IMG/VR virus record: IMGVR_UViG_2585427966_000002
Reading direction: 5' to 3' (one strand)
DNA: 54,288 bases
Source: a virus
Lineage: Duplodnaviria; Heunggongvirae; Uroviricota; Caudoviricetes
Shown in pieces: positions 10,566 to 23,327 of this stretch. How positions within the stretch are numbered: the stretch's first letter is position 1; every line of letters starts with the position of its first letter. The notes beneath the pieces are model-generated. The model was not told the origin of the DNA. It was given only the letters and a program-made list of their open reading frames with translations, and made no database searches. The position numbers and the translations under genes were made by a program.

Positions 10566-11327
10566 ATGGAGACTGTTTTTGACGCACTGAAAGCAATGGG
10601 GAAAGCTACGTCGGTAGAACTGGCTGCGCGACTTGATATCAGTCGTGAAGAAGTGCTGAACGAGCTGTGGGAACTGAAAAAGGCTGGCTTCGTTGATAAA
10701 AGCGTATACACCTGGCGCGTGGCTGATAACAACGTTCAGCAGGAACAGCCAGAGCAGGCAGAACTGCCGGAAGAAACCACCACGGCAACAGTCGCAAAAA
10801 TTTCGGAGTGCGATTTAACTGCGACGATTGAACAACGTGGCCCACAAACGGCGGATGAACTGGCTACGTTTTTCGGCATCACATCACGCAAAGTGGCTTC
10901 AACGCTGGCAATGGCAATCAGTAAAGGTCGTCTGATTCGCGTTAATCAGAACGGTAAATTTCGTTACTGCATGCCGGGCGATAATTTACCAGCAGAGCCG
11001 AAAGCTGCATCGGTAACGGAAACTGATGGTAAAGCCTTTCCTCAACCAGCAGGTGTTGCGTTACCGGGACAGGAAGCTGCAACACAGGAAGATATTAAAA
11101 CAGAAACTGTGGCGGACATTGTGCAGTCGTTGCCATCGTTTACCGAAACGCGAGCGGATGACCTCGTTCTGCCATCGCTGCATATGGCAAACCGCGAACT
11201 GCGTCGGGCGAAAAATCATGTCCAGAAGTGGGAGCGTGTCTGCGCCGCGCTGCGGGAGCTGAACAAGCACCGGGATATTGTTCGACAGATTACTGATTCT
11301 TCTCGCTGTGTTGCATCGGAAAAGTGA
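10566..11327 (+). CDS. ydaW: YdaW-like protein, intact (253 aa; track ORF starts 10515)
   Basis: Start chosen at [12 protein letters not shown] with GGGAGA upstream; N-terminal winged-helix-like region. Confidence 0.6.
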
Positions 11328-11765
11328 TTGCCGGAGGCGCTTATGGCAAAAGTATTTACACCAGAAGAGCGGGAAAAAATTAAAGGGCAGGTTGTTGAAC
11401 TTGTACGTCTGAGCGGTCGCGAGACGTTACGGCAACTGGAAGCCAAGACAGGTGCGACAAGATATCTGATGAGTGTTCTCGCCAGTGAGCTGGTTGCCAG
11501 TGGCGATGTATACAACTCTGGTTACGGGTTATTCCCGTCTGAACAGGCGCGTAAAGACTGGCAAAACGCCCGCAAAAAACTATCGAGGGCAAAGGTGAAG
11601 AAACCTGCTGTAGTTGATCCGGACCTTATCTGGTCATTACCAGACGGAGAAATACGCCGCTATGACAGGCGTCTGAATATAATCTGTCGCGAGTGCCGGA
11701 AGAGCGAAGTCATGCAGCGTGTACTGGCGTTCTATCAGGGTAATTTTCAGGATGTGCTGTTGTGA
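11328..11765 (+). CDS. Hypothetical phage protein (145 aa)
   Basis: Track ORF; start overlaps ydaW stop; a diverged copy of its 3' end recurs at 52561-52690. Confidence 0.5.
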   Translation: MPEALMAKVFTPEEREKIKGQVVELVRLSGRETLRQLEAKTGATRYLMSVLASELVASGDVYNSGYGLFPSEQARKDWQNARKKLSRAKVKKPAVVDPDLIWSLPDGEIRRYDRRLNIICRECRKSEVMQRVLAFYQGNFQDVLL

Positions 11766-11925
11766 GCCAAATTAACAATCAGGGAACTGCGTGAACTGAA
11801 AGAGAAATCATAATCCAAATCTGAATAATTAAATTTAGCACTGTAAATAAAATTTAATCCTTAACCGGAGGGGGGGCTGCACCCTCAAAATATTAGGAGG
11901 CGGCCCGAAAGGGCGGTAATGAAAA

Positions 11926-12105
11926 ATGACTGAATTAACCAAAAAGCAATTAATCGAAGAAGCTAAATTAAAAATAGCGATTGAGAAATGCCACCCCAAT
12001 TCAGGGATGGCACGGGTAGAGGGCGAATTATTCAAAATTGCTCTGGCATCGCTGGAAGCAGAGCCAGTTGGTGATTTTTATGAATACAAACCGGATGACT
12101 GGTAG
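11926..12105 (+). CDS. Hypothetical small protein (59 aa)
   Basis: My reading: MTELTKKQLIEEAKLKIAIEKCHPNSGMARVEGELFKIALASLEAEPVGDFYEYKPDDW; weak RBS. Confidence 0.3.
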   Translation: MTELTKKQLIEEAKLKIAIEKCHPNSGMARVEGELFKIALASLEAEPVGDFYEYKPDDW

Positions 12106-12171
12106 CAGCGTTCGGCTGGAGATAAAGCGCCAAAATGGACGCCACCCTATGCCGTTTTTCCAGCGCCCGTA

Positions 12172-12429
12172 GTGCCGGAAGAAATGGATTTGCTTACATG
12201 CCATCTCGATGGTGTAACTGAAACATATGCTGAGGGATGGAACGCTTGCCGCGCTGCCCTGCTTCAGGGCAAAGGGGAGCCCGGGAAACAAGTTCGCGAA
12301 TTGACAATGCTGGTTAAACAATTGGTTAGTCAACTGAAGAAAGCGAAACCGGGCTGCAAATTGCCGGATAAAGTGATGGACTACCTGGAGCGAAGCGGAC
12401 TTATAAGCGTGGAGGATGTTTCACGATGA
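12172..12429 (+). CDS. Hypothetical protein (85 aa, non-ATG start in track)
   Basis: Track ORF only; the start codon is uncertain. Confidence 0.3.
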   Translation: MPEEMDLLTCHLDGVTETYAEGWNACRAALLQGKGEPGKQVRELTMLVKQLVSQLKKAKPGCKLPDKVMDYLERSGLISVEDVSR

Positions 12430-12509
12430 CCTGGACTGAAGCATTCACAACGGTAGGAATTGCGATGGCGGTGGCGCTGGTTGTGTATTCGATTTGCCGC
12501 TGGGGATAA
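12426..12509 (+). CDS. Candidate 27-aa hydrophobic peptide (MTWTEAFTTVGIAMAVALVVYSICRWG)
   Basis: ATG overlaps the stop of the preceding ORF (TGATG); single predicted TM helix; not in track (<60 aa). Confidence 0.25.
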   Translation: MTWTEAFTTVGIAMAVALVVYSICRWG

Positions 12510-12562
12510 AAACGATTTGCGGGAAAAGGATAGTTAAGTAGAATTGCTGCGGGTGCTTGAGG

Positions 12563-12598
12563 CTATCTGCCTTGGGCATGAACACCAAAGGCAGATAG
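12563..12598. repeat. Perfect 11-bp inverted repeat (CTATCTGCCTT ... AAGGCAGATAG) with 14-nt spacer
   Basis: Read directly; no T-tract follows, so not a classic terminator; lies at the left edge of the low-GC cassette. Confidence 0.6.
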
Positions 12599-12819
12599 AG
12601 AAAAACCCACCCGACTATAAATCAAAGTGTATTACCCCCATTTGTTGGACGATGAAATGGGTTTAGTTAACTATGTCGGTATCGACATGACTAAAACAAC
12701 CTTAAATTGCTCGATTAATAGACAAGTAGTTTTGAAAGATTAAATTTATGCGATCCGGTATTTTCAAGGGATAGCCTTTATGAGGTTATCTTATGGGGTT
12801 AAAACATCAAGAACAGTTG

Positions 12820-12828
12820 TGTTATAAT
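12820..12828 (+). promoter_or_regulatory. Extended -10 promoter element (TGTTATAAT) upstream of the methyltransferase gene
   Basis: TGnTATAAT about 32 bp upstream of the ATG at 12861; -35 weak. Confidence 0.35.
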
Positions 12829-12860
12829 ACATAGAAACTAATAAGAGACGTTGCAACTAT

Positions 12861-14012
12861 ATGAATGTAATAGATTTGTTTTCTGGCGTTGGAGGTCTAA
12901 GTCTTGGTGCTGCACGTGCTGGATTTGATGTTAAAATGGCAGTTGAAATTGATCAACATGCTATTAATACTCACGCAATTAATTTTCCAAGAAGTTTGCA
13001 CGTCCAAGAAGATGTTTCTTTACTAAATGCAGAAATAATTAAGGGTTTTTTTAAAAACGATATGCCCATAGATGGTATTATTGGCGGTCCTCCGTGCCAA
13101 GGATTTAGTTCAATAGGCAAGGGGAATCCTGATGATAGCAGGAATCAGCTTTACATGCATTTCTACCGTTTAGTATCAGAATTACAGCCATTATTCTTTT
13201 TGGCAGAAAATGTTCCAGGTATTATGCAAGAGAAATATTCTGGCATTAGAAATAAAGCATTTAATTTGGTTAGCGGTGATTATGATATTCTTGATCCCAT
13301 CAAGGTAAAAGCATCTGATTATGGTGCTCCAACTATTCGAACTAGATATTTTTTTATCGGTGTAAAAAAATCATTGAAGCTTGATATTTCAGATGAAGTA
13401 TTTATGCCTAAAATGATTGATCCGGTTACTGTAAAAGATGCTTTGTATGGATTACCAGATATTATCGATGCCAATTGGCAATCAGACTCTGAGAGTTGGC
13501 GAACAATTAAAAAAGATCGAAAAGGGGGATTTTATGAAAAATTATGGGGGCAGATCCCTCGGAATGTTGGTGATACAGAATCGATCGCTAAGTTAAAAAA
13601 TAATATCATATCTGGATGTACCGGAACATTACATAGCAAAATCGTCCAAGAGCGTTATGCTTCCTTATCTTTTGGGGAAACTGATAAAATTTCAAGATCT
13701 ACAAGATTAGATCCAAATGGTTTTTGCCCGACTTTAAGGGCGGGAACCGCTAGAGATAAAGGAAGCTTTCAAGCCGTCAGGCCGATCCACCCTTATCATC
13801 CAAGAGTGATTACACCAAGAGAAGCTGCTAGATTACAAGGCTTCCCTGATTGGTTTCGCTTTCATGTAACTAAATGGCATAGTTTCAGACAAATAGGAAA
13901 TAGCGTGTCACCAATAGTTGCTGAATATATATTAAAGGGGCTGTACAATTTATTAAATAAAAGAGTACAGCCCGAATATTTAAACCATAATTCTTTGGAA
14001 GTTAGGGTATAA
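12861..14012 (+). CDS. DNA (cytosine-5)-methyltransferase (383 aa)
   Basis: Motif I FSGVGGLSLG, motif IV GGPPCQGFS (catalytic Cys), motif VI ENVPGI, C-terminal QIGNSVSP; AT-rich codon usage. Confidence 0.9.
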   Translation: MNVIDLFSGVGGLSLGAARAGFDVKMAVEIDQHAINTHAINFPRSLHVQEDVSLLNAEIIKGFFKNDMPIDGIIGGPPCQGFSSIGKGNPDDSRNQLYMHFYRLVSELQPLFFLAENVPGIMQEKYSGIRNKAFNLVSGDYDILDPIKVKASDYGAPTIRTRYFFIGVKKSLKLDISDEVFMPKMIDPVTVKDALYGLPDIIDANWQSDSESWRTIKKDRKGGFYEKLWGQIPRNVGDTESIAKLKNNIISGCTGTLHSKIVQERYASLSFGETDKISRSTRLDPNGFCPTLRAGTARDKGSFQAVRPIHPYHPRVITPREAARLQGFPDWFRFHVTKWHSFRQIGNSVSPIVAEYILKGLYNLLNKRVQPEYLNHNSLEVRV

Positions 14013-14969
14013 CCTATAGTATTTATAATAGTTATCCCGTTCATTTTCGTTTAAAGAGAACTCTTCAGCGGCTGCCTGATATGCTTCTTTATCAGGCAGT
14101 TTACTATCTAAATTTATCTTTTCTTTAATTGTTAGTGTTGGTATTGCTATTTCTTGCACGTCTTCCCAATTTGTTGAATAAAATTGCCAGTTAGAAAGGT
14201 CGCATGCCTTAGATAACTCTATATATTCTTGTTCTGAGGAGAAAAAACCTGATATTGTCAACATGGTATGACTGCCATCATTATATTGATTTAAGGATAA
14301 TGGGTAATACTGAATCTTATCCTTACGTCCTGAAAGACCACGTTCTATTGCTGATCTAAAAGCGTTTGTAATAATTCGTATTAAAAGAGCTTTAATCTTA
14401 CGATCTGAAAGATCTGCATTTGATATCTGAAGATTAAAATCAAGATACTTTTTCCCAAGCAATGATTTTAATGAATTAATAAAAGCTTCTTTAAAAATAT
14501 CTAAACTTTCTCCAACTCTACGTTGGTAATAAGAACTAGGATTTATGGGGAAGGTGACCTTCAAAATATCAAAAGAGCTTACTTTAGTACTTAGTAAGTG
14601 TATATCATCTAGATCCGTTTGTATTTTTTTCGGGGAGGCATAGTCTAACCATGTTATTGATGGTTTAGAAAAACTATAATCAAGAATAAAGTCATGAGCT
14701 GATATTAGCTTACAATCAATACAATTATAAGGCAAATTATATTTTTGTCTGATGTGAGTAGACTCTTGTTCTTCGAGAGAAATCATATCAGAAAGAGCGA
14801 TACGATTATGCATGATTCTAAAATCTTCAAGCATCGGACCACCAAAACCTATATATGTATATTCTTGAATATTTAGTCTTTTGCTTAAGAGGTTTAGGCT
14901 TTCGAGAAAAATCTCTCTATCAATAGACTTATTATGCCTTAAGTGATAGGGAATGTATTGTCCAGACAT
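13980..14969 (-). CDS. Hypothetical protein (329 aa), partner of the GHKL ATPase
   Basis: ATG overlaps the upstream GHKL gene stop (ATGA), GAGGTG RBS; 3' end overlaps the MTase 3' end by 33 bp, convergent; no motifs recognised. Confidence 0.7.
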   Translation of the reverse strand: MSGQYIPYHLRHNKSIDREIFLESLNLLSKRLNIQEYTYIGFGGPMLEDFRIMHNRIALSDMISLEEQESTHIRQKYNLPYNCIDCKLISAHDFILDYSFSKPSITWLDYASPKKIQTDLDDIHLLSTKVSSFDILKVTFPINPSSYYQRRVGESLDIFKEAFINSLKSLLGKKYLDFNLQISNADLSDRKIKALLIRIITNAFRSAIERGLSGRKDKIQYYPLSLNQYNDGSHTMLTISGFFSSEQEYIELSKACDLSNWQFYSTNWEDVQEIAIPTLTIKEKINLDSKLPDKEAYQAAAEEFSLNENERDNYYKYYRLYPNFQRIMV

Positions 14970-16360
14970 CACTTCACCTCTTCAATCACCGTATCAAAGC
15001 ATTGCATCCCCACATCAGAAGCGCTAGCATCTTCATGTCCAAAGAAATATTTAGATAAAATTTTAACATCTTCTTTCTCTCTGGTGAAGATTATTCGTAC
15101 AGTAGAGCTTTTTTTTACTGGGGTAGGCAGCTTAGGTGTATATCGCCACTCATTTTTGTTTCTATTAGGGTTGGACCAGTTATTTTTTTTATCTTCTGGA
15201 GTTGATTGTGGGGTAATTTCAAATAAAGATTGAGCTTCATGTGACTGAGCTGACTTAAGTAATTTTTTCCCTTCTTCAAGATGCTCACCTTTCCACTGAT
15301 TGGTGAATCGAATAAAATGCATCATCCCTTCAATCATTTTATTTCGTACATCATTGTACAATGTAGAACTAAGATCGACACCTCGTTTCGTTGTTGTTAT
15401 TGGTAATTTTTCTGGGTTTTTACTGGTAAAGCGAACAACCCCAGAAATTGCTATAAATTGGGTATGAAACCTTGGTACATTAGCAAAGCCCCAACCTGTG
15501 AGATGTGTCTTATCACAATATAGAACAACGCGGTCATTGCAAATGACAGTCCATCCAGCATCATCAGAACTCCTTTTTTCTAAAACATCATCATTGTCAT
15601 CTTCTAAATTTTTATAGAAGCCAACAACTAAATCGATATCAACATCGTCTATTTTAGCTTTATATATGTATGGTTCTATTTTAGAATGATCAGTTATGAT
15701 GTTAATCGGATTATGTTCAACAACAACTCCATTTAATTCTATTTTAAATCCTTTTTGAATAATAAATGACAATGAGTGTTTTATCTGTAAAAAGAGATCA
15801 GTAAGATATGTGCTCTCATTAAATTTTTGTGCCACATTAGAATGGAGTTTTTTTATCTCTATAGTTGTGCCTGTTGGATTTTTGTTATCATAGTCACTCT
15901 CGTGCATCGGTATTTTCCAACCATCACCATCGATCCAATCAGGTGTTATATCTACAGTGAATGCGCCATCGGGATTATTCGATTGTATTGAGCAATCTCT
16001 ACCCATTTTAAAAATGGCTCTTTTCATACCAATACCATAGACGCCAACGGTGCCTTCATTTTCTTCTTCTTTTTGATGGGGTCGTCCCATTTTAAAAGCA
16101 TATTCTCGGAAGCTTTTAGGGATACCTCCGCAATTGTCTTCTATAATAAAGACATCTTTATTAATCGTAAGTTTCGCATAAAATCCTTCATATGGTTTTG
16201 AAGTTTTTTTTGTGTCTTTTATTGTACGTAAAGCCCCATCGACGCAGTTATCAAGCAGATCAAGTATGGCATCGTTTAAGTCGATATCTCGAGTTAGCAT
16301 ACTTACAAAAAATCTTTTACTAGGACTAAAGTCTGCTGTTGGAGTCGTGTTCTCAGTCAT
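14969..16360 (-). CDS. GHKL-family ATPase (Bergerat fold; MutL/MORC/Hsp90-like N-terminal domain), 463 aa
   Basis: N-box DLLDNCVDGA, G1 box IEDNCGGIP, G2 box GVYGIGMKRAIFKMG in the N-terminal ~130 aa; C-terminal ~300 aa unassigned. Confidence 0.8.
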   Translation of the reverse strand: MTENTTPTADFSPSKRFFVSMLTRDIDLNDAILDLLDNCVDGALRTIKDTKKTSKPYEGFYAKLTINKDVFIIEDNCGGIPKSFREYAFKMGRPHQKEEENEGTVGVYGIGMKRAIFKMGRDCSIQSNNPDGAFTVDITPDWIDGDGWKIPMHESDYDNKNPTGTTIEIKKLHSNVAQKFNESTYLTDLFLQIKHSLSFIIQKGFKIELNGVVVEHNPINIITDHSKIEPYIYKAKIDDVDIDLVVGFYKNLEDDNDDVLEKRSSDDAGWTVICNDRVVLYCDKTHLTGWGFANVPRFHTQFIAISGVVRFTSKNPEKLPITTTKRGVDLSSTLYNDVRNKMIEGMMHFIRFTNQWKGEHLEEGKKLLKSAQSHEAQSLFEITPQSTPEDKKNNWSNPNRNKNEWRYTPKLPTPVKKSSTVRIIFTREKEDVKILSKYFFGHEDASASDVGMQCFDTVIEEVK

Positions 16361-16422
16361 AATTTACTCTCTATGTGTTTGGGAAAATAAATACCTTAAG
16401 TGCAAATTGTTGATTTTAAACG

Positions 16423-16436
16423 CTTCGCATGCGAAG
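16423..16436. promoter_or_regulatory. Perfect 14-bp palindrome CTTCGCATGCGAAG overlapping a TTGACT -35-like hexamer for the minus-strand GHKL operon
   Basis: Read directly; about 65-75 bp upstream of the GHKL ATG at 16360. Confidence 0.4.
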
Positions 16437-16859
16437 TCAACGATGTTAAGAAAGAAAGTGCATGTGATCTAACAGTATGTTTTTAAAAAAAGATTAGCTT
16501 TATGAGAATTCAGGACTGAATCCCGTGAGAGGAAAATAACATATGTTATTGTTGCATTGCTGTGTTGTTTGGGATTTGTTGCACCATTCTGGCGTTGGTA
16601 TATCTAGTTCGTTGTTCATTTTGTTAATTGTACAACAGGCAGACAACAGAGAGCTTTTAGCCTAGTTAGCTTACGAAATTAAACAACTAAGATTATCGGC
16701 GGGGAGTGGTCACCGCTACTCTTTGGCTAGGAGACTTCAACGCAACCGCACACAACCAGCTTCGGCGGGTTTTGTTTTTTCCTGGCATTCTGGTTTACAA
16801 TTTGCGTGCTAGCTTGAACAACTGGCATCTGCTGCACTGCGCCATCGAGAGATTGAGAA

Positions 16860-17459
16860 ATGGCGCATATACAACTGGTCAAACAAACTTCTTCTGGTTT
16901 ACTTCTCCCGGCGACGCCGGAGAGTTGCGATTTTCTGCATCAAATCAAAATAGGTGAGTGGATACACGCAGATTTTAAGCGTGTGCGTAACTACGCATTC
17001 CACAAGCGTTTTTTCAAACTCCTGCAACTGGGATTCGATTACTGGACTCCGGTCGGTGGGGCGATCACGCCTCGCGAACGAGAACTGCTGTCTGGTTTCG
17101 TTGATTACCTGTGCGAATCAGTTGGTCGGGAACACACGCCAGCCCTGAGTGATGCCGCAGAGCAATACCTTAACACCGTTGCGACTCGTAGAACCCGGGA
17201 TACGGCGTTGCTAAAGTCGTTTGAGGCTTTCCGCGAGTGGGTAACCATTCAGGCCGGATTTTACACCGAGCATATTTATCCGGACGGTAGCCGTGGGCGT
17301 CGGGCAAAATCCATCGCTTTTGCGAATATGGACGAAGTCGAGTTTCAGCAGGTTTATAAATCTGTACTGAATGTGCTGTGGAACTGGATTCTGTTCCGTA
17401 AATTCTCCTCTCAGGAGGAAGTTGAAAATGTGGCCGCACAACTACTGGAGTTTGCGTAA
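16860..17459 (+). CDS. Nin-region phage protein (199 aa), possibly DUF1367-like
   Basis: Track ORF; position immediately upstream of the ybcO-like gene; family assignment from memory only. Confidence 0.55.
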   Translation: MAHIQLVKQTSSGLLLPATPESCDFLHQIKIGEWIHADFKRVRNYAFHKRFFKLLQLGFDYWTPVGGAITPRERELLSGFVDYLCESVGREHTPALSDAAEQYLNTVATRRTRDTALLKSFEAFREWVTIQAGFYTEHIYPDGSRGRRAKSIAFANMDEVEFQQVYKSVLNVLWNWILFRKFSSQEEVENVAAQLLEFA

Positions 17460-17749
17460 TGGTGAATTTACGTAAAGCGGCTAAAGGCCAGATATGCCAG
17501 ATCAGAATCCCTGGCTACTGCAATCACAATCCCGAAACCTCTGTGCTGGCGCATTACAGGCTGGCGGGGACGTGCGGAACAGCGACAAAACCACACGATA
17601 TGCAGGCGGCGATAGCCTGTAGCTCATGCCACGATCTAATCGACGGGCGGGTAAAAACCAGCGATTACACCAAAGAAGAATTGCGCCTGATGCATGCTGA
17701 AGGGGTTTTTCGCACACAAGAAATCTGGAGAAAGAAAGGTCATTTATGA
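17459..17749 (+). CDS. YbcO-like protein (DUF1364; Cys/His-rich, putative nuclease), 96 aa
   Basis: Similarity to remembered DLP12 YbcO (LRKAA.G..CQ.RIPG.CN.NPETSVLAH.R); ATG overlaps upstream stop. Confidence 0.7.
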   Translation: MVNLRKAAKGQICQIRIPGYCNHNPETSVLAHYRLAGTCGTATKPHDMQAAIACSSCHDLIDGRVKTSDYTKEELRLMHAEGVFRTQEIWRKKGHL

Positions 17750-18288
17750 TTTACCCAACGAATACAGGAAAAAGCGGAGAACACCTTCGCCTCACCACGC
17801 TGGAAAGTGTCTGGATTCAGGGAAAACTACGTATGTGGGGGCGCTGGTCGTATATTGGCGGTGGCAGGTCAGGGAATATGTTCAATCAGTTGTTGGCATC
17901 CAAAAAACTGACGAAAACAGCCATTAATGAAGCCCTGCGCAGAATGAAAAAAGCGGGAATAGAGAAAGCTGAGCTGGAAGCGTTTTTGCGAGAGATGATC
18001 AACGGCAAGCAAAAGAGCTGGCTGGCGCATTGTACTGATGCAGAGGCGTTATGTATTGATCGAGTCATAAGTGAGGTGCTGGCAGAGCATCCAGGATTGA
18101 TTTGCATTCTCCGGCAACGCTATGAAGGGCGGGGGATGACTAAGCGCAAAATGGCTGAATTGCTAAATGATGCACACCCAGAGTGGTGTTTTAGCACATG
18201 CGAAAAACGGATTGCTAATTGGTTAGCTGTTGCTGAGTATGCCCTATATATTCCCATGCGTGAATCATTTGCTGAGAAAATGGCTTGA
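17746..18288 (+). CDS. Putative late-gene antiterminator (Q-like), 180 aa
   Basis: Position: last gene before a strong hairpin terminator and the lysis cassette; sequence not matched to a specific Q family. Confidence 0.45.
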   Translation: MIYPTNTGKSGEHLRLTTLESVWIQGKLRMWGRWSYIGGGRSGNMFNQLLASKKLTKTAINEALRRMKKAGIEKAELEAFLREMINGKQKSWLAHCTDAEALCIDRVISEVLAEHPGLICILRQRYEGRGMTKRKMAELLNDAHPEWCFSTCEKRIANWLAVAEYALYIPMRESFAEKMA

Positions 18289-18365
18289 TTTCTTACGTAT
18301 AAACTGCTTCAATTTTGCTATGCTTCGTAAAGCTGTATCGCGAGGCGGATTGCAGACATGGACAT

Positions 18366-18397
18366 CGTAAAAAAACCGCTCAATGCGGTTTTTTTAC
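18366..18397. terminator. Symmetric hairpin flanked by A- and T-tracts (tR'-like)
   Basis: aaaaaccgc-tcaat-gcggttttttt read directly, 80 bp downstream of the Q-like gene. Confidence 0.55.
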
Positions 18398-18715
18398 GTC
18401 AGGAAAGCAGGGGAGAATGCTGCTAGTTGGGCAACTGGTCTTTCTGCTCCAAATTATAACAGAGACCAGTTATAGTTTCGGTGCTGTGTTTTTTTTACAA
18501 TATTGTGATAACACATTGCTGGCGGGAGTTTTGATATTTCTTGGCAGGGGCTGATGATGCGTTATCCTGATGTCGTCAACTCATATAAAATGAGATGAGA
18601 GATCATTGCAGGGTGGTTTGTAATTCGCTGTTTAGCGGGACAATATGTTGTCTGATACAAGACACCCGACGCCTCAGATTACTATAATAAAGACGAAGCA
18701 TCCTTTGTATTGACC

Positions 18716-18742
18716 AACCGCCTGTTTAGGCGGTTCTTTTTG
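18716..18742 (+). terminator. Rho-independent terminator (aaccgcc-tgttta-ggcggtt-cttttt)
   Basis: 7-bp GC-rich stem and T-tract read directly. Confidence 0.55.
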
Positions 18743-19332
18743 GGCTGGTTTATTGTATGCCAAATGATTATTAAAAAGGTTGTGTTAATAACAAAATCCG
18801 AAATAATATGCCTGCATATTTTTATCTTGCTTATATTCTGCATATTGTGCATAGCAGGCTCATCCCTGCAATCAAAACTGTATGATGAGTATTTTTTGTT
18901 TTCCTTTTTTCCAGTCATCTGATGATGACCTGCTTCTTTTTAATCCGGATCGACATCAGTTTTTTAAGATAATTCCTGCGAGTTATATGCATAAATACCA
19001 CAAACTCCGCATTTTATGTGGTTGGGAGTTGCCGGGCGCGCAGTGAGTTTGCTAAGAAAACTCCTGCATGGTGAATCCCCCTGTGCGGTGGGGTGATACC
19101 ATTAACCTTTTCTGTCGCCGACAGGTATCACGAACATTTTGTTCACCGGGAGGCACCCGGCACCATGCACTTCAATAGATTCTCTCCACATTATGGATAT
19201 TCTTTCAGAATATCCCACGCAGACTTTGTGTAAATGTTAACAAATGTGCGTTTTATTTGATCTGATTCGCTGTTTGAGCGTCCAAAACAACGGTATATAT
19301 AATCCTTTACTATATGACATATGTGAGGAAAA

Positions 19333-19761
19333 ATGGGTTTTCGTAGCGCATCAATTCTTACGTTGATTATTAGTGGGATTATTATCGGGTGCACTGATGC
19401 TGTATCGACAAATTATCATGACCGTACATCATATTACTCCGATAAAGCAATAGAGACACAGTATGTGAGTTCATCTGAACGTACTTCTGATGTTAGTGAG
19501 GATATCCGTCTGTATGCCCATCAAATCAAGAGCGCCATCGAAAAACAGTTCGGGGATGCGAGTAAGTATTCAGGAAAAGAGTGTACACTGAGAATGCATA
19601 TGGCCCCGAATGGCCTTCTACTGGAGGTTAAAAGAGAAAGTGGAGACCTCGATTTATGTCGTGAAGCGATGAATGCGATAAAGAATGCTGATATACCTGC
19701 CCCCCCTTCGCCGGAAGTATATAAAGTATTTCAAAATGGGGTGCTGGATTTTAAACCCTGA
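19333..19761 (+). CDS. Lipoprotein with TolA C-terminal (domain III)-like region, 142 aa
   Basis: Signal peptide with lipobox IIGC; C-terminus (YAHQIKSAIEKQF...CTLRMHMAPNGLLLEVK...PPSPEVYKVFQNGVLDFKP) resembles the E. coli TolA C-terminus as I recall it. Confidence 0.75.
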   Translation: MGFRSASILTLIISGIIIGCTDAVSTNYHDRTSYYSDKAIETQYVSSSERTSDVSEDIRLYAHQIKSAIEKQFGDASKYSGKECTLRMHMAPNGLLLEVKRESGDLDLCREAMNAIKNADIPAPPSPEVYKVFQNGVLDFKP

Positions 19762-19911
19762 TATTTATTGTTTTGTAATAAACGGTTTCGGCTTAGGTTT
19801 GTTCTGACACAGCTACGGCACTGAGCTAAATTTAGCGGATAGTCAGCTCTGAGCCAGTGGCGGACGTAACAACTACTATTGCTGAGATTTTAATGGATTG
19901 AGGAGCAAGAA

Positions 19912-20307
19912 GTGGGATTAAAGAAAATCGTTATGTTGACTTTTTGGGTCGGTTTTGTTGCGGGATGCACACCTTTACACCCTTCAGATTGCCACAAAAC
20001 TACTGCTACAGGTAGTTGCAGTTCAGGACGCTGGGATGATCAGGATGAATGGGGGGCGCAAGCGCGGGGAATCAGAGCTGCAATTAATGCCAAACTTGAT
20101 GAGCCGCATAACTGGAAAGGGAAAAAATGCAGGTTGCATATGGAATTCTCTCAGGATGGTACGGCGTTAAAAATATCTACCAGTAACGGTGATAAAGCCT
20201 ATTGCGAAGCGATAAAGTCCGCAGCTCATAAAGCCAAATTTCCGGCCTTCAACAATCCGGAAGTCTACAGAGATTTTCAGAAATCTGGCTTTGACATGCG
20301 AGGTTAG
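19912..20307 (+). CDS. Second lipoprotein with TolA C-terminal-like region, 131 aa (diverged paralogue)
   Basis: Lipobox VAGC; CRLHMEFSQDGTALKIS...AKFPAFNNPEVYRDFQKSGFDMRG parallels the preceding gene. Confidence 0.65.
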   Translation: MGLKKIVMLTFWVGFVAGCTPLHPSDCHKTTATGSCSSGRWDDQDEWGAQARGIRAAINAKLDEPHNWKGKKCRLHMEFSQDGTALKISTSNGDKAYCEAIKSAAHKAKFPAFNNPEVYRDFQKSGFDMRG

Positions 20308-20432
20308 CTCTTCAGTTACTATATCTCATTCATAGCAAACTGACAGATTTGATGATGTTCTATATACGAAACCTGTGATGTCAAGTCTGAGCTAATACAA
20401 ATAAACATAATATCAGAGAAATACATTTTATT

Positions 20433-20456
20433 AGCTCGCTACGGCGAGCTTTTTAT
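20433..20456 (+). terminator. Rho-independent terminator (agctcgc-tacg-gcgagct-ttttat)
   Basis: Read directly, downstream of the second lipoprotein gene. Confidence 0.5.
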
Positions 20457-20558
20457 ATTGCATCGTCTCCAGCATATATATCAATTAAGGCTCTGATTGA
20501 TGTGTCTGAAAGCCTACACATAATAACTATGCCATCCGTTCCGTGCGGAGGTGAGGCT

Positions 20559-20774
20559 ATGAAATCCATGGACAAAATTTCAACAGGCATTGCCTACGGC
20601 ACCTCCGCAGGCAGTGCTGGCTACTGGTTTTTACAGTTGCTCGATAGAGTAACTCCGTCACAGTGGGCTGCAATCGGTGTGCTGGGTAGTCTGGTATTTG
20701 GCCTGCTGACGTACCTGACAAACCTTTATTTCAAGATTAAAGAAGATAAGCGCAAGGCTGCGAGAGGTGAATAA
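20559..20774 (+). CDS. Holin (EssD/phage 21 S-like), 71 aa
   Basis: Track ORF 20502-20774 trimmed to [10 protein letters not shown] with GGAGGTGAGG RBS; TM segment; directly upstream of the endolysin. Confidence 0.8.
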
Positions 20775-21271
20775 TGCCTCCATCATTACGAAAAGTCGTT
20801 GCTGCTGCTATTGGTGGCGGAGCAATTGCTATAGCATCAGTGTTAATCACTGGCCCAAGTGGTAACGATGGTCTGGAAGGTGTCAGCTACATACCATACA
20901 AAGATATTGTTGGTGTATGGACTGTATGTCACGGGCATACAGGAAAAGACATCATGCTCGGTAAAACGTATACCAAAGCAGAATGCAAAACACTCTTGAA
21001 TAAAGACCTTGCCACGGTCGCCAGACAAATTAACCCGTACATCAAAGTCGATATACCGGAAACAACGCGCGGCGCTCTTTACTCATTCGTTTACAACGTG
21101 GGTGCTGGCAATTTCAGAACATCGACGCTTCTTCGCAAAATAAACCAGGGCGATATCAAAGGCGCATGTGATCAGCTACGTCGCTGGACATATGCTGGCG
21201 GTAAGCAATGGAAAGGTCTCATGACTCGTCGTGAGATTGAGCGTGAAATCTGTTTGTGGGGTCAGCAATGA
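20774..21271 (+). CDS. SAR-endolysin (phage lysozyme, RrrD-like), 165 aa
   Basis: N-terminal hydrophobic SAR segment; lysozyme-like sequence matching remembered RrrD; ATG overlaps the holin stop. Confidence 0.85.
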
Positions 21272-21732
21272 ACAGAGTAACCGCGATTATCTCCGCTCTG
21301 GTTATCTGCATCGTCGTCTGCCTGTCATGGGGTGTTAATCATTACCGTGATAACGCCATCGCCTACAAAGAACAGCGCGACAAAAATGCCAGAGAACTGA
21401 AGCTGGCGAACGCGGCAATTACTGACATGCAGATGCGTCAGCGTGATGTTGCTGCGCTCGATGCAAAATACACGAAGGAGTTAGCTGATGCGAAAGCTGA
21501 AAATGATGTTCTGCGTGATGATGTTGCCGCTGGTCGTCGTCGGTTGCACATCAAAGCAGTCTGTCAGTCAGTGCGTGAAGCCACCACCGCCTCCGGCGTG
21601 GATAATGCAGCCTCCCCCCGACTGGCAGACACCGCTGAACGGGATTATTTCACCCTCCGGGAACGACTGGTAATGATGCAGGCCCAACTTGAAGGTGCTC
21701 AGCAATACATAACCGAGCAGTGTTTAAAGTAA
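21268..21732 (+). CDS. rzpR: i-spanin Rz (153 aa)
   Basis: N-terminal TM, coiled-coil rest; Rz1 gene embedded in the +1 frame. Confidence 0.8.
21488..21673 (+). CDS. rzoR: o-spanin Rz1 lipoprotein (61 aa), nested in Rz
   Basis: Lipobox VVGC and proline-rich stretch; entirely within the Rz gene in another frame. Confidence 0.75.
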
Positions 21733-21869
21733 AATCTTAACTACAATATGATTCATTTTGATGATTGTTTCATAAGGAACAGTGAAGTAAGATCTAAGAG
21801 GAGTTAAATTTTATACAGTATAATCATAATATTGCAGCAAGGTGGTTATAATTGAAAGAATATTTAGAT

Positions 21870-23327
21870 ATGAATACATCTCATGTAAGAGTTGTTACTC
21901 ATATGTGTGGGTTCCTGGTTTGGCTCTATAGTCTTTCAATGTTGCCACCAATGGTTGTAGCATTGTTTTATAAAGAAAAAAGCCTGTTCGTTTTCTTTAT
22001 AACTTTCGTTATATTTTTTTGCATTGGTGGCGGAGCGTGGTATACAACTAAGAAATCTGGCATTCAATTACGTACCCGTGATGGGTTTATTATAATTGTA
22101 ATGTTTTGGATTTTGTTTTCTGTTATTAGTGCATTCCCTTTATGGATTGACTCAGAACTTAATTTAACGTTCATTGATGCTCTGTTTGAAGGGGTTTCTG
22201 GAATAACAACAACAGGAGCAACTGTAATTGATGATGTTAGTTCATTACCTCGGGCATATTTGTACTATCGGTCACAGTTAAATTTTATAGGTGGTTTAGG
22301 AGTTATTGTTCTGGCGGTTGCTGTATTGCCATTATTGGGTATTGGTGGTGCAAAGCTTTATCAGTCAGAAATGCCGGGGCCATTTAAGGATGACAAACTC
22401 ACTCCCCGCCTGGCCGATACGTCACGGACACTGTGGATAACTTATTCTTTATTAGGTATTGCTTGTATTGTCTGTTATAGACTTGCAGGAATGCCTTTGT
22501 TTGATGCTATTTGTCACGGGATTTCCACAGTTTCGCTTGGTGGTTTCTCAACTCATAGCGAGAGTATCGGATATTTTAATAACTATTTGGTTGAGCTGGT
22601 GGCTGGTTCTTTTTCCCTGCTATCGGCTTTCAACTTCACTCTTTGGTATATTGTTATTAGCAGGAAAACGATAAAACCTTTAATCAGAGATATTGAACTT
22701 CGTTTCTTTCTGTTAATAGCCTTAGGGGTGATCATTGTTACCTCTTTCCAGGTCTGGCATATAGGTATGTATGACTTGCATGGAAGTTTTATTCATTCGT
22801 TTTTTCTTGCCAGCTCCATGCTCACTGATAATGGTTTAGCTACGCAGGATTATGCAAGTTGGCCCACGCACACGATAGTGTTTTTGCTGTTGTCAAGTTT
22901 CTTTGGGGGATGTATAGGTTCAACTTGTGGTGGAATTAAGTCACTTCGATTTCTTATACTTTTCAAACAAAGCAAACACGAGATAAATCAGCTTTCTCAT
23001 CCCAGAGCGTTGTTGAGTGTAAATGTAGGAGGGAAGATAGTTACAGATCGTGTAATGAGGTCTGTATGGAGTTTCTTTTTTCTTTATACTCTCTTCACGG
23101 TGTTTTTTATACTGGTGTTAAATGGTATGGGATATGATTTTCTTACATCATTTGCAACAGTGGCTGCATGTATTAATAATATGGGATTAGGTTTTGGGGC
23201 TACTGCATCGTCATTCGGAGTGCTTAATGACATTGCAAAATGTTTAATGTGCATAGCTATGATTCTTGGTCGCCTTGAAATTTATCCTGTTATTATATTG
23301 TTTTCAGGTTTTTTTTGGCGCTCCTAA
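21870..23327 (+). CDS. trkG: TrkG potassium uptake protein (485 aa)
   Basis: Multi-TM transporter matching remembered TrkG; AT-rich; track ORF 21852 trimmed to MNTSHVRV. Confidence 0.9.
   Translation: MNTSHVRVVTHMCGFLVWLYSLSMLPPMVVALFYKEKSLFVFFITFVIFFCIGGGAWYTTKKSGIQLRTRDGFIIIVMFWILFSVISAFPLWIDSELNLTFIDALFEGVSGITTTGATVIDDVSSLPRAYLYYRSQLNFIGGLGVIVLAVAVLPLLGIGGAKLYQSEMPGPFKDDKLTPRLADTSRTLWITYSLLGIACIVCYRLAGMPLFDAICHGISTVSLGGFSTHSESIGYFNNYLVELVAGSFSLLSAFNFTLWYIVISRKTIKPLIRDIELRFFLLIALGVIIVTSFQVWHIGMYDLHGSFIHSFFLASSMLTDNGLATQDYASWPTHTIVFLLLSSFFGGCIGSTCGGIKSLRFLILFKQSKHEINQLSHPRALLSVNVGGKIVTDRVMRSVWSFFFLYTLFTVFFILVLNGMGYDFLTSFATVAACINNMGLGFGATASSFGVLNDIAKCLMCIAMILGRLEIYPVIILFSGFFWRS

Follow-up and report, generated by a model that had tools for sequence, protein, structure and literature searches.

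The window analysed here, a 54,288-nucleotide stretch of Caudoviricetes DNA (IMG/VR record IMGVR_UViG_2585427966_000002), is an intact Rac-like Escherichia coli prophage, the query being 100% identical to strain ST2747. Between its Q-like antiterminator gene and its lysis genes lie two tandem genes, here called A and B, which code for small proteins with a lipobox and a stand-alone copy of the C-terminal domain (domain III) of the envelope protein TolA, domains I and II of TolA being absent from both. Both genes are found on mobile elements and are subject to strong purifying selection. The reading tentatively favoured here is that A and B may act as unenergised competitors, tethered to the outer membrane, which intercept invaders that bind TolA; this is considered quite possible, yet short of probable. 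What we infer, namely ligand binding and a protective outcome, can be argued strongly for A and more weakly for B.

Lipoprotein signals and TolA domain III similarity of A and B

The two genes are composed as follows:

19333-19761 (+): gene A, ATG start preceded by GAGGA, 142 amino acids (aa)
19333-19392 (+): signal peptide of A, aa 1-20, followed by a linker, aa 21-54
19495-19758 (+): TolA domain III copy of A, aa 55-142
19912-20307 (+): gene B, GTG start, 131 aa, Shine-Dalgarno sequence GAGGAG at 19900-19905, six bases 5' of the GTG; signal peptide aa 1-19, Cys-rich linker aa 19-44
20044-20304 (+): divergent TolA-domain-III fold of B, aa 45-131

Two tandem reading frames with the lipoboxes IIGC and VAGC had been pointed out in a preliminary description of the window made from the letters alone, and both were recovered at these positions on the plus strand. 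The PROSITE lipoprotein pattern (PS51257-type), run as the regular expression {DERK}(6)-[LIVMFWSTAG](2)-[LIVMFYSTAGCQ]-[AGS]-C, is matched by both proteins, with Cys20 of A (IIGC) and Cys19 of B (VAGC) as the lipobox cysteines, both within the range of positions 15-35 and preceded by a hydrophobic h-region, and the first seven residues contribute the n-region charge, R or KK. The shorter B call of the Prokaryotic Genome Annotation Pipeline (PGAP), which starts from an internal ATG, would lose this charged n-region. Among the homologues of both families the lipobox cysteine is invariant, and residue +2, which is Thr in A and B, is Ala, Ser or Thr and never Asp. Sequence rules predict lipidation of both proteins and, since the +2 residue is not Asp, their sorting by the Lol pathway to the outer membrane.

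The linkers between signal peptide and domain comprise 34 residues in A, rich in Ser, Thr and Tyr and predicted to be disordered, and 25 Cys-rich residues in B. The B segment (residues 20-44, 19969-20043), with the motif CxPLHPSxCHKTTAxGSCSSGR(W/F), is conserved as strongly as the TolA-like domain itself, even in relatives of 47% identity, and its two extra cysteines are placed in a small hairpin in the AlphaFold2 (AF2) model. This segment could serve as a further binding site, perhaps contacting an outer-membrane protein.

Similarity to TolA domain III is apparent from both sequence and structure. The Pfam matches of the pair are to TolA/TonB_2, with PF06519 (TolA C-terminal) reaching 82.6 bits in A and 54.6 bits in B where the gathering score is 25, and TolA chains were the sole matches when PDB sequences were searched with phmmer (A, E 5e-28; B, E 5e-9). 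Aligned without gaps to residues 334-421 of E. coli TolA, A is identical at 52 of 88 positions (59%) and has the same C-terminal LDFKP, and B is identical at 27 of 88 (31%); A and B agree with each other at 25 of 88 positions (28%), A being nearer to TolA than to B. The TolA disulfide cysteine pair is kept (Cys84/Cys109 in A, Cys73/Cys98 in B) and is invariant in the homologues. In the AF2 models the predicted local distance difference test (pLDDT) is around 90 over the domain, with signal and linker disordered, and the best Foldseek matches in the PDB are TolA domain III structures, namely 2x9a_B for A (root-mean-square deviation (rmsd) 0.6 Å, target TM-score (TMt) 0.93) and 3qdp for B (rmsd 1.0 Å, TMt 0.93), with TonB C-terminal domains ranking far below. 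Pfam, phmmer and AF2/Foldseek thus agree with the preliminary description that the C-terminal regions parallel TolA's C-terminal domain, and the motif given there is correct for A. The structure prediction against TolA domain III which it had proposed as a check returns the fold, three sheet strands packed on helices, for both proteins, with an rmsd of 0.6-1.0 Å.

Neither protein is a full-length TolA, since both lack the transmembrane domain I, which couples to TolQ-TolR, and the long, Ala/Lys/Glu-rich helical domain II that spans the periplasm; moreover, they measure 142 and 131 aa compared to 421 aa, and they are encoded outside a tolQRA-tolB-pal operon, with the host tolA locus elsewhere. 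Full-length TolA models of NCBIfam are matched at their C-terminal end alone (positions 265-362 of 362 and 293-386 of 387). The TIGR02794 score of A (75.6) exceeds the cut-off of 59.45 from this C-terminal part alone, and the NF007065 score of 107.8 stays below the cut-off of 213; the PGAP name for A, 'cell envelope integrity protein TolA', is an over-annotation. Recent capture of the host tolA as the source of A was rejected as well, with a DNA identity of 59%, a third-position identity of 40% and a synonymous divergence (dS) of about 2.4, which is as high as saturation allows. Likewise, A and B are no recent tandem duplicates, being only 28% identical, with A closer to TolA.

It is well established that filamentous-phage g3p, colicin N (ColN), colicin A (ColA) and TolB dock on TolA domain III. 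The N1 domain of g3p, colicin N and the TolB N-terminus bind helix 1 (334-349) and strand beta3 (412-420) of TolA, binding requiring the backbone amides of D418 and K420, and colicin A uses the opposite edge, beta2 (L375-P380), together with K368, K379 and K396 (PMC3365938, PMC4339652, PMC7391070). The g3p of phage IF1 docked on the TolA C-terminal domain is seen in PDB entry 2x9a. Affinities for TolA are about 1 µM for the invaders and weaker, 40-200 µM, for TolB; therefore, a modest level of a decoy could favour invaders over TolB. In A, identity to the TolA surfaces amounts to 11 of 16 residues in helix 1, 6 of 9 in beta3 and 3 of 6 in beta2 (K379 included), plus K396 outside the strand; L417, D418, F419, K420 and P421 are kept, and there is no proline at 418 or 420. 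For B, the corresponding numbers are 4 of 16, 2 of 9 and 2 of 6. Its C-terminal 34 residues, counted from the second disulfide cysteine, are identical in seven compared copies, and the last 23 are found in A2 homologues, too. Judged from these comparisons, A is a credible mimic of the E. coli TolA tip and B has the same fold with different edges. Because the ligand-binding edges of B differ from those of TolA, the term 'TolA decoy' has a far firmer basis in A than in B.

Distribution, mobility and selection

Both genes are common in sequenced E. coli. At a coverage of at least 80%, a 1251-bp cassette holding the pair is present almost in full in 773 of the 5426 complete E. coli genomes, and 784 E. 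coli genome records carry it at 99% identity or more; relatives are encoded on at least 152 IMG/VR viral contigs. Homology with phage mEp460 spans positions 19045-20775 (96.8%), which corresponds to the block of the small RNA (sRNA) STnc100, A, B and holin, the Q gene of mEp460 being different. The same STnc100-A-B-holin block was found in 80 IMG/VR prophage contigs with varying Q and endolysin flanks (pattern '---YYYY---'), and in 79 of the 80 contigs compared B occurs together with A. A variant of A, 65% identical and without B, occurs in Qin/Stx-like prophages between Q and nanS-p/holin, i.e., in the stx position.

The A family is restricted to E. coli and Shigella (46 clusters), and the B family is broader (370 clusters). 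B was found on 607 plasmids, among which the common stretch is the gene alone (19882-20310). On conjugative plasmids of the IncI1/B/O type it directly follows the relaxase gene, and on pO157 it is located near toxB. Pili encoded by IncI1 plasmids are the receptor of phage IF1. More than 30 species, from Enterobacter, Citrobacter, Serratia, Klebsiella, Leclercia, Pantoea, Rouxiella, Kluyvera and other genera, have B as a lone gene on the chromosome, at sites that bear no relation to one another. A search through 33 species for an operon partner conserved next to B turned up no recurring gene save a TonB_C gene in a Klebsiella/Raoultella subgroup. Chromosomal copies of different genera have about 170 bp 5' of B in common; in the search for regulator boxes 5' of B this shared stretch was seen and no motif was assigned.

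In Serratia marcescens (contigs L011/L012, 6957-8736), the solitary B adjoins a gene pair encoding GmrSD_N and HEPN (RiboL-PSP/MAE_28990) proteins, a neighbourhood which looks like a defence island. A B gene of 89% identity is also present on contigs of about 8 kb from metagenome-assembled genomes labelled Lachnospiraceae and Treponemataceae (L019 and L020). Most likely, these contigs are mis-binned enterobacterial plasmid or phage DNA and not occurrences beyond Enterobacterales.

Ratios of nonsynonymous to synonymous divergence (dN/dS, omega) are 0.04-0.13 for B copies and 0.24 for the A domain. At the same time, dS between the Citrobacter and Serratia copies of B is only 0.19, which points to recent horizontal transfer. 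A phmmer search with B against 1.84 billion representatives gave 130 relatives, 72 of which are 100-170 aa long; as 53 of these 72 possess a lipobox, short lipoprotein forms of TolA domain III constitute a diverse class.

A gene for a 125-aa TonB_C protein (47.4 bits against a gathering score of 24.6), which has a cleavable Sec signal and no lipobox, invariably stands 5' of the B-like genes (47-53% identical) of the Klebsiella oxytoca group and Raoultella. The pair is inserted between der and yfgJ-xseA, with an integrase alongside in one genome. Examples of such TonB_C plus TolA-III pairs are:

L046, 3574-4399
L049, 3517-4393
L051, 5001-5831
L052, 500-1328

With the TonB_C gene always 5' of the B-like gene, stand-alone Ton and Tol tips thus travel together. 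TonB is the other envelope transducer that is hijacked by colicins and phages.

Position and transcription layout in the prophage late region

In gene order, the prophage carries intR, xisR, ralR, recET, kilR, sieB, racR and ydaS/T, then replication and nin genes, the Q-like gene, A, B, holin, lysozyme and Rz/Rz1, and finally trkG followed by terminase, head and tail genes. Around the gene pair, the following elements were located:

17746-18288 (+): Q-like late-gene antiterminator of the DUF1133 family (Pfam DUF1133, 356 bits), 5' border of the A-B slot
18659-18688 (+): candidate late promoter AAGACA-18-TATAAT, from a consensus scan
18716-18735 (+): short hairpin with T-run (-14.3 kcal/mol, z -1.5)
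19036-19222 (+): STnc100 prophage sRNA (Rfam RF02076, full length, 86.6 bits against a gathering score of 47, E 2.9e-18)
19274-19303 (+): sigma-70-like promoter candidate for A(-B), TTGAGC-18-TATAAT, 10 of 12 consensus positions with a perfect TATAAT
20433-20450 (+): intrinsic terminator 3' of B, AGCTCGC-TACG-GCGAGCT then TTTTTAT (-13 kcal/mol, z -3.67)
20559-20774 (+): S21-type holin, with a longer reading frame from 20502; 3' border of the slot and part of the mosaic block
20774-21271 (+): lysozyme of the signal-arrest-release (SAR) type, lysis cassette
21256-21732 (+): Rz, lysis cassette
21488-21673 (+): Rz1, embedded in Rz, lysis cassette

The assignment of the Q-like gene rests on DUF1133 and on its position, which equals that of Q in related prophages; its Phage_antitermQ match is marginal (26.1 bits against a gathering score of 26). 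With this gene on one side and the holin, from 20502 or 20559, on the other, A and B do lie in the slot between Q and lysis genes where they had been placed at the outset. The lysis cassette (20559-21732, plus strand) is a full set of holin, endolysin and spanin, and no tRNA genes were found in the gap between Q and lysis genes of the window.

Positions 18659-18735 are possibly a pR'/tR'-like pair, a weak assignment from consensus matches alone. In a 2026 preprint, STnc100 was described as related to PasD sRNAs, which adjoin Q genes. The promoter candidate at 19274-19303 is situated about 30 nt 5' of the A start codon and is identical in mEp460. In the 150-nt spacer between A and B no terminator was detected, hairpins there having z-scores of -1.4 and +0.35 and no T-run. 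Hence, of the terminators initially assigned to each of the two genes, the one following B (20433-20450) is present and nothing terminator-like is found downstream of A. Because a terminator follows B but not A, the two genes form one unit rather than two, which looks like a single promoter-A-B-terminator unit inside the late operon with a candidate promoter. The preliminary suggestion of periplasmic TolA decoys accordingly keeps its structural footing in the domain III fold of both proteins and loses the argument for two separate morons, each with its own terminator.

Directly 3' of Rz/Rz1, and 5' of a ParB-like gene and the terminase genes, trkG (21852-23327, plus strand) encodes a TrkH-family potassium transporter, a placement that matches Rac of K-12 and makes it a second cargo gene of the late region. 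Within the nin region, a C5 cytosine DNA methyltransferase gene (12861-14012, plus strand) is convergent with a two-gene unit on the minus strand, which encodes a Methyltransf_35 'putative O-methyltransferase' (13980-14972) and a GHKL/HATPase_c_3 ATPase (14969-16360). The latter two proteins have no match in PADLOC; the region 12861-16360 may be an uncatalogued defence or restriction-like cassette.

Comparison with the cryptic Rac of K-12 MG1655 (1418000-1428000 versus window positions 11000-21800) shows ydaW running straight into rzpR/rzoR fragments and trkG. The ydaW-rzpR deletion removed the nin region, the Q-like gene, STnc100, A, B, holin and endolysin from K-12, which probably explains why A and B have never been studied.

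A possible decoy function, its alternatives and known systems

As a decoy, each protein would consist of a flexible tether and a stand-alone TolA domain III tip, anchored in the outer membrane and facing the periplasm. Because the membrane anchor and the helical stalk of TolA are absent, neither A nor B should be energisable by TolQR. Beneath the outer membrane, such tips would rival the real TolA tip for ligands that bind by beta-strand addition, such ligands being g3p N1 of filamentous phages, the segments with which group A colicins and related bacteriocins bind TolA and, furthermore, N-termini of TolB that TolB-binding colicins have released. Once bound to a tip without energy supply, an invader would not be pulled in, its import being uncoupled from the proton-motive force, and the lysogen or plasmid host would be made tolerant, possibly at the cost of some interference with Tol-Pal. 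The retained helix 1 and beta3 surfaces of A, the Thr at +2 and the affinities of invaders, which exceed that of TolB, fit this scheme. So does the occurrence of B alone on IncI1 and pO157 plasmids, as a mobile single gene under purifying selection, and with a TonB_C partner in Klebsiella. The spread of the pair through E. coli, the sharing of its mosaic block by prophages that differ in Q and endolysin, the A variant in the stx slot and the docking on TolA of the g3p of IF1, whose receptor is the IncI1 pilus, agree with it too, as does the laboratory precedent described below.

Several observations weigh against such a function. In a search by DNA comparison and tblastn, only one of 50,697 isolated phage genomes, mEp460_ev081, carried A/B genes. 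No defence family of PADLOC-DB 2.0 was matched by A or B at E values up to 1, the only PHROG match is family 5772 of 'unknown function', and no functional, binding, phenotype or expression study of A or B was found in the full-text literature. The low identity of B to TolA domain III (31%), with differing beta2 and beta3 edges (2/6 and 2/9), argues in the same direction, and its C-terminus, uniform among the compared copies, suggests binding of a host partner that is itself conserved more than binding of invaders, which evolve fast. TolB would be bound by a decoy as well, which could be costly. Additionally, A and B are part of a late operon and tightly linked to the holin, so that high expression may be lytic and not lysogenic, and the promoter candidate is a consensus match only, promoter-like sites in this region being no more numerous than in shuffled sequences.

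This late position raises the question of sabotage of Tol-Pal, in which tips made late and in quantity under the control of Q would titrate the TolB N-terminus, keep Pal from being mobilised and weaken the outer membrane, thereby aiding lysis and release or vesicle formation. Such a role would account for the location in the late operon, with the Q-like gene on one side and the holin on the other, and for the co-inheritance of the STnc100-A-B-holin block (79 of 80 IMG/VR contigs) next to a varying endolysin; moreover, tol mutants leak and hyper-vesiculate, and TolB binds the beta3 site kept in A. It is nonetheless judged quite unlikely, as B is equally conserved (dN/dS of about 0.1) on plasmids and at chromosomal sites without lysis genes nearby, the lysis cassette is already complete with holin, endolysin and spanin, and the Klebsiella TonB_C partner has no obvious lysis role. 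A terminator between B and the holin together with a promoter-like site before A is, furthermore, the layout of a moron expressed in the lysogen. The chromosomal copies of B outside prophages, in Enterobacter, Citrobacter, Serratia, Klebsiella, Leclercia and others, would be expected if B were a patchily distributed Enterobacterales gene for an outer-membrane-tethered module which binds TolB or some other partner, tunes Tol-Pal or envelope stress and has hitch-hiked on mobile elements, A being its phage-side paralogue. The 34 identical C-terminal residues in seven copies and the conserved Cys-rich motif suggest an endogenous partner in line with this, as does the upstream stretch of about 170 bp common to different genera. 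Yet the B locus differs in every genus examined, with no recurring neighbour, and copies from different genera have diverged far too little at synonymous sites to have descended vertically. Absence from K-12 and enrichment on mobile elements constitute accessory behaviour typical of defence or competition genes, and a purely physiological role therefore appears unlikely.

Two further explanations were weighed. Lipoprotein morons of the Bor/Iss/TraT type, acting in host interaction or virulence (e.g., as surface-exposed proteins in serum resistance or adhesion) with the TolA-like fold as a mere scaffold, find a parallel in bor, which is likewise located in a lambdoid late region, in the vicinity of B to toxB on the virulence plasmid pO157 and in the A variant of the stx slot. 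Profile searches gave no similarity to Bor, Iss or TraT, though, the genes are widespread in commensal and environmental genera, and A keeps the TolA ligand-binding edges in a detail which a scaffold would not need, rendering this option very unlikely. Gene debris, left from a captured host tolA and wrongly called as two genes, might be read from the PGAP name of A and from the truncated and frameshifted copies in databases, and is scarcely credible, being contradicted by dS and dN/dS. With a dS of 2.4 and a third-position identity of 40% to tolA, A is no recent fragment, each gene is equipped with a signal peptide and a ribosome-binding site of its own, and neither the omega values (0.04-0.13 for B, 0.24 for the A domain) nor the 784 records with at least 99% identity are those of debris.

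The existence of the genes is not new, as annotation pipelines label A and B 'TolA C-terminal domain-containing' and a PHROGs family exists. If true, the decoy mechanism would be a new form of phage and plasmid entry exclusion, relying on mimicry of a periplasmic co-receptor and not on masking of a surface receptor. An unstudied single-gene resistance to group A colicins and filamentous phages would then be present in roughly every seventh sequenced E. coli, and also on hundreds of IncI1 and pO157-type plasmids. This would bear on colicin- and phage-based therapeutics, on phage display and M13 work in non-K-12 hosts, and on the way conjugative plasmids defend cells which their own pili make vulnerable. 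K-12, being without A and B, is an ideal null background in which the decoy reading is directly testable. A wider generalisation, which is put forward as conceivable and rather doubtful, is that stand-alone secreted or lipid-anchored Tol and Ton tips, among them A, B and the Klebsiella TonB_C plus TolA-III pair, make up a class of entry-blocking immunity genes in Enterobacterales that is horizontally mobile and has gone unrecognised, and that they mimic the host co-receptor and protect lysogens and plasmid hosts against Tol- or Ton-dependent bacteriocins and pilus-specific filamentous phages, A and B covering different sets of ligands.

Compared to TolA domain III itself (PF06519; PDB 1TOL, 2X9A, 3QDP/3QDR and 1S62), A and B are alike in fold, disulfide and order of secondary-structure elements, whereas a lipoprotein signal and a short tether replace domains I and II and the genes reside on prophages or plasmids. 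With the classical lambdoid morons stx, bor and lom, the A-B unit shares a promoter-like site 5', a terminator 3' and the character of a mosaic block; the stx slot itself, between Q and nanS-p/holin, is taken by the A variant, and the slightly low G+C content of the block (42-46% compared to 46% for the window) is moron-like. Unlike classical morons, the cargo mimics a host envelope protein, the promoter is a candidate and a single terminator is shared.

A laboratory precedent was reportedly provided in J Bacteriol in 1993 by Levengood-Freyermuth, Click and Webster, in whose work TolA's C-terminal domain, overproduced in the periplasm, is said to have made E. coli colicin-tolerant and leaky. 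Like A and B, that construct is a free, unenergised periplasmic tip; it was artificial, soluble and overproduced, whereas A and B are natural, predicted to be lipid-anchored, diverged and selected on mobile elements. The accessory genes for Cor (phi80, N15 and mEp phages) and Llp (T5) likewise encode small phage outer-membrane lipoproteins of superinfection exclusion, which block an entry route of rival phages and colicins, and no sequence relation of A or B to them was found in Pfam and PHROG searches. Cor and Llp inactivate the surface receptor FhuA, whereas A and B would mimic a periplasmic co-receptor. In superinfection immunity conferred by the g3p of Ff phages, the same surface, g3p N1 on TolA domain III, is used to shut the Tol route. 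There, the ligand of the invader saturates the tip of the host, and A and B would reverse this principle, an extra tip saturating the ligand of the invader.

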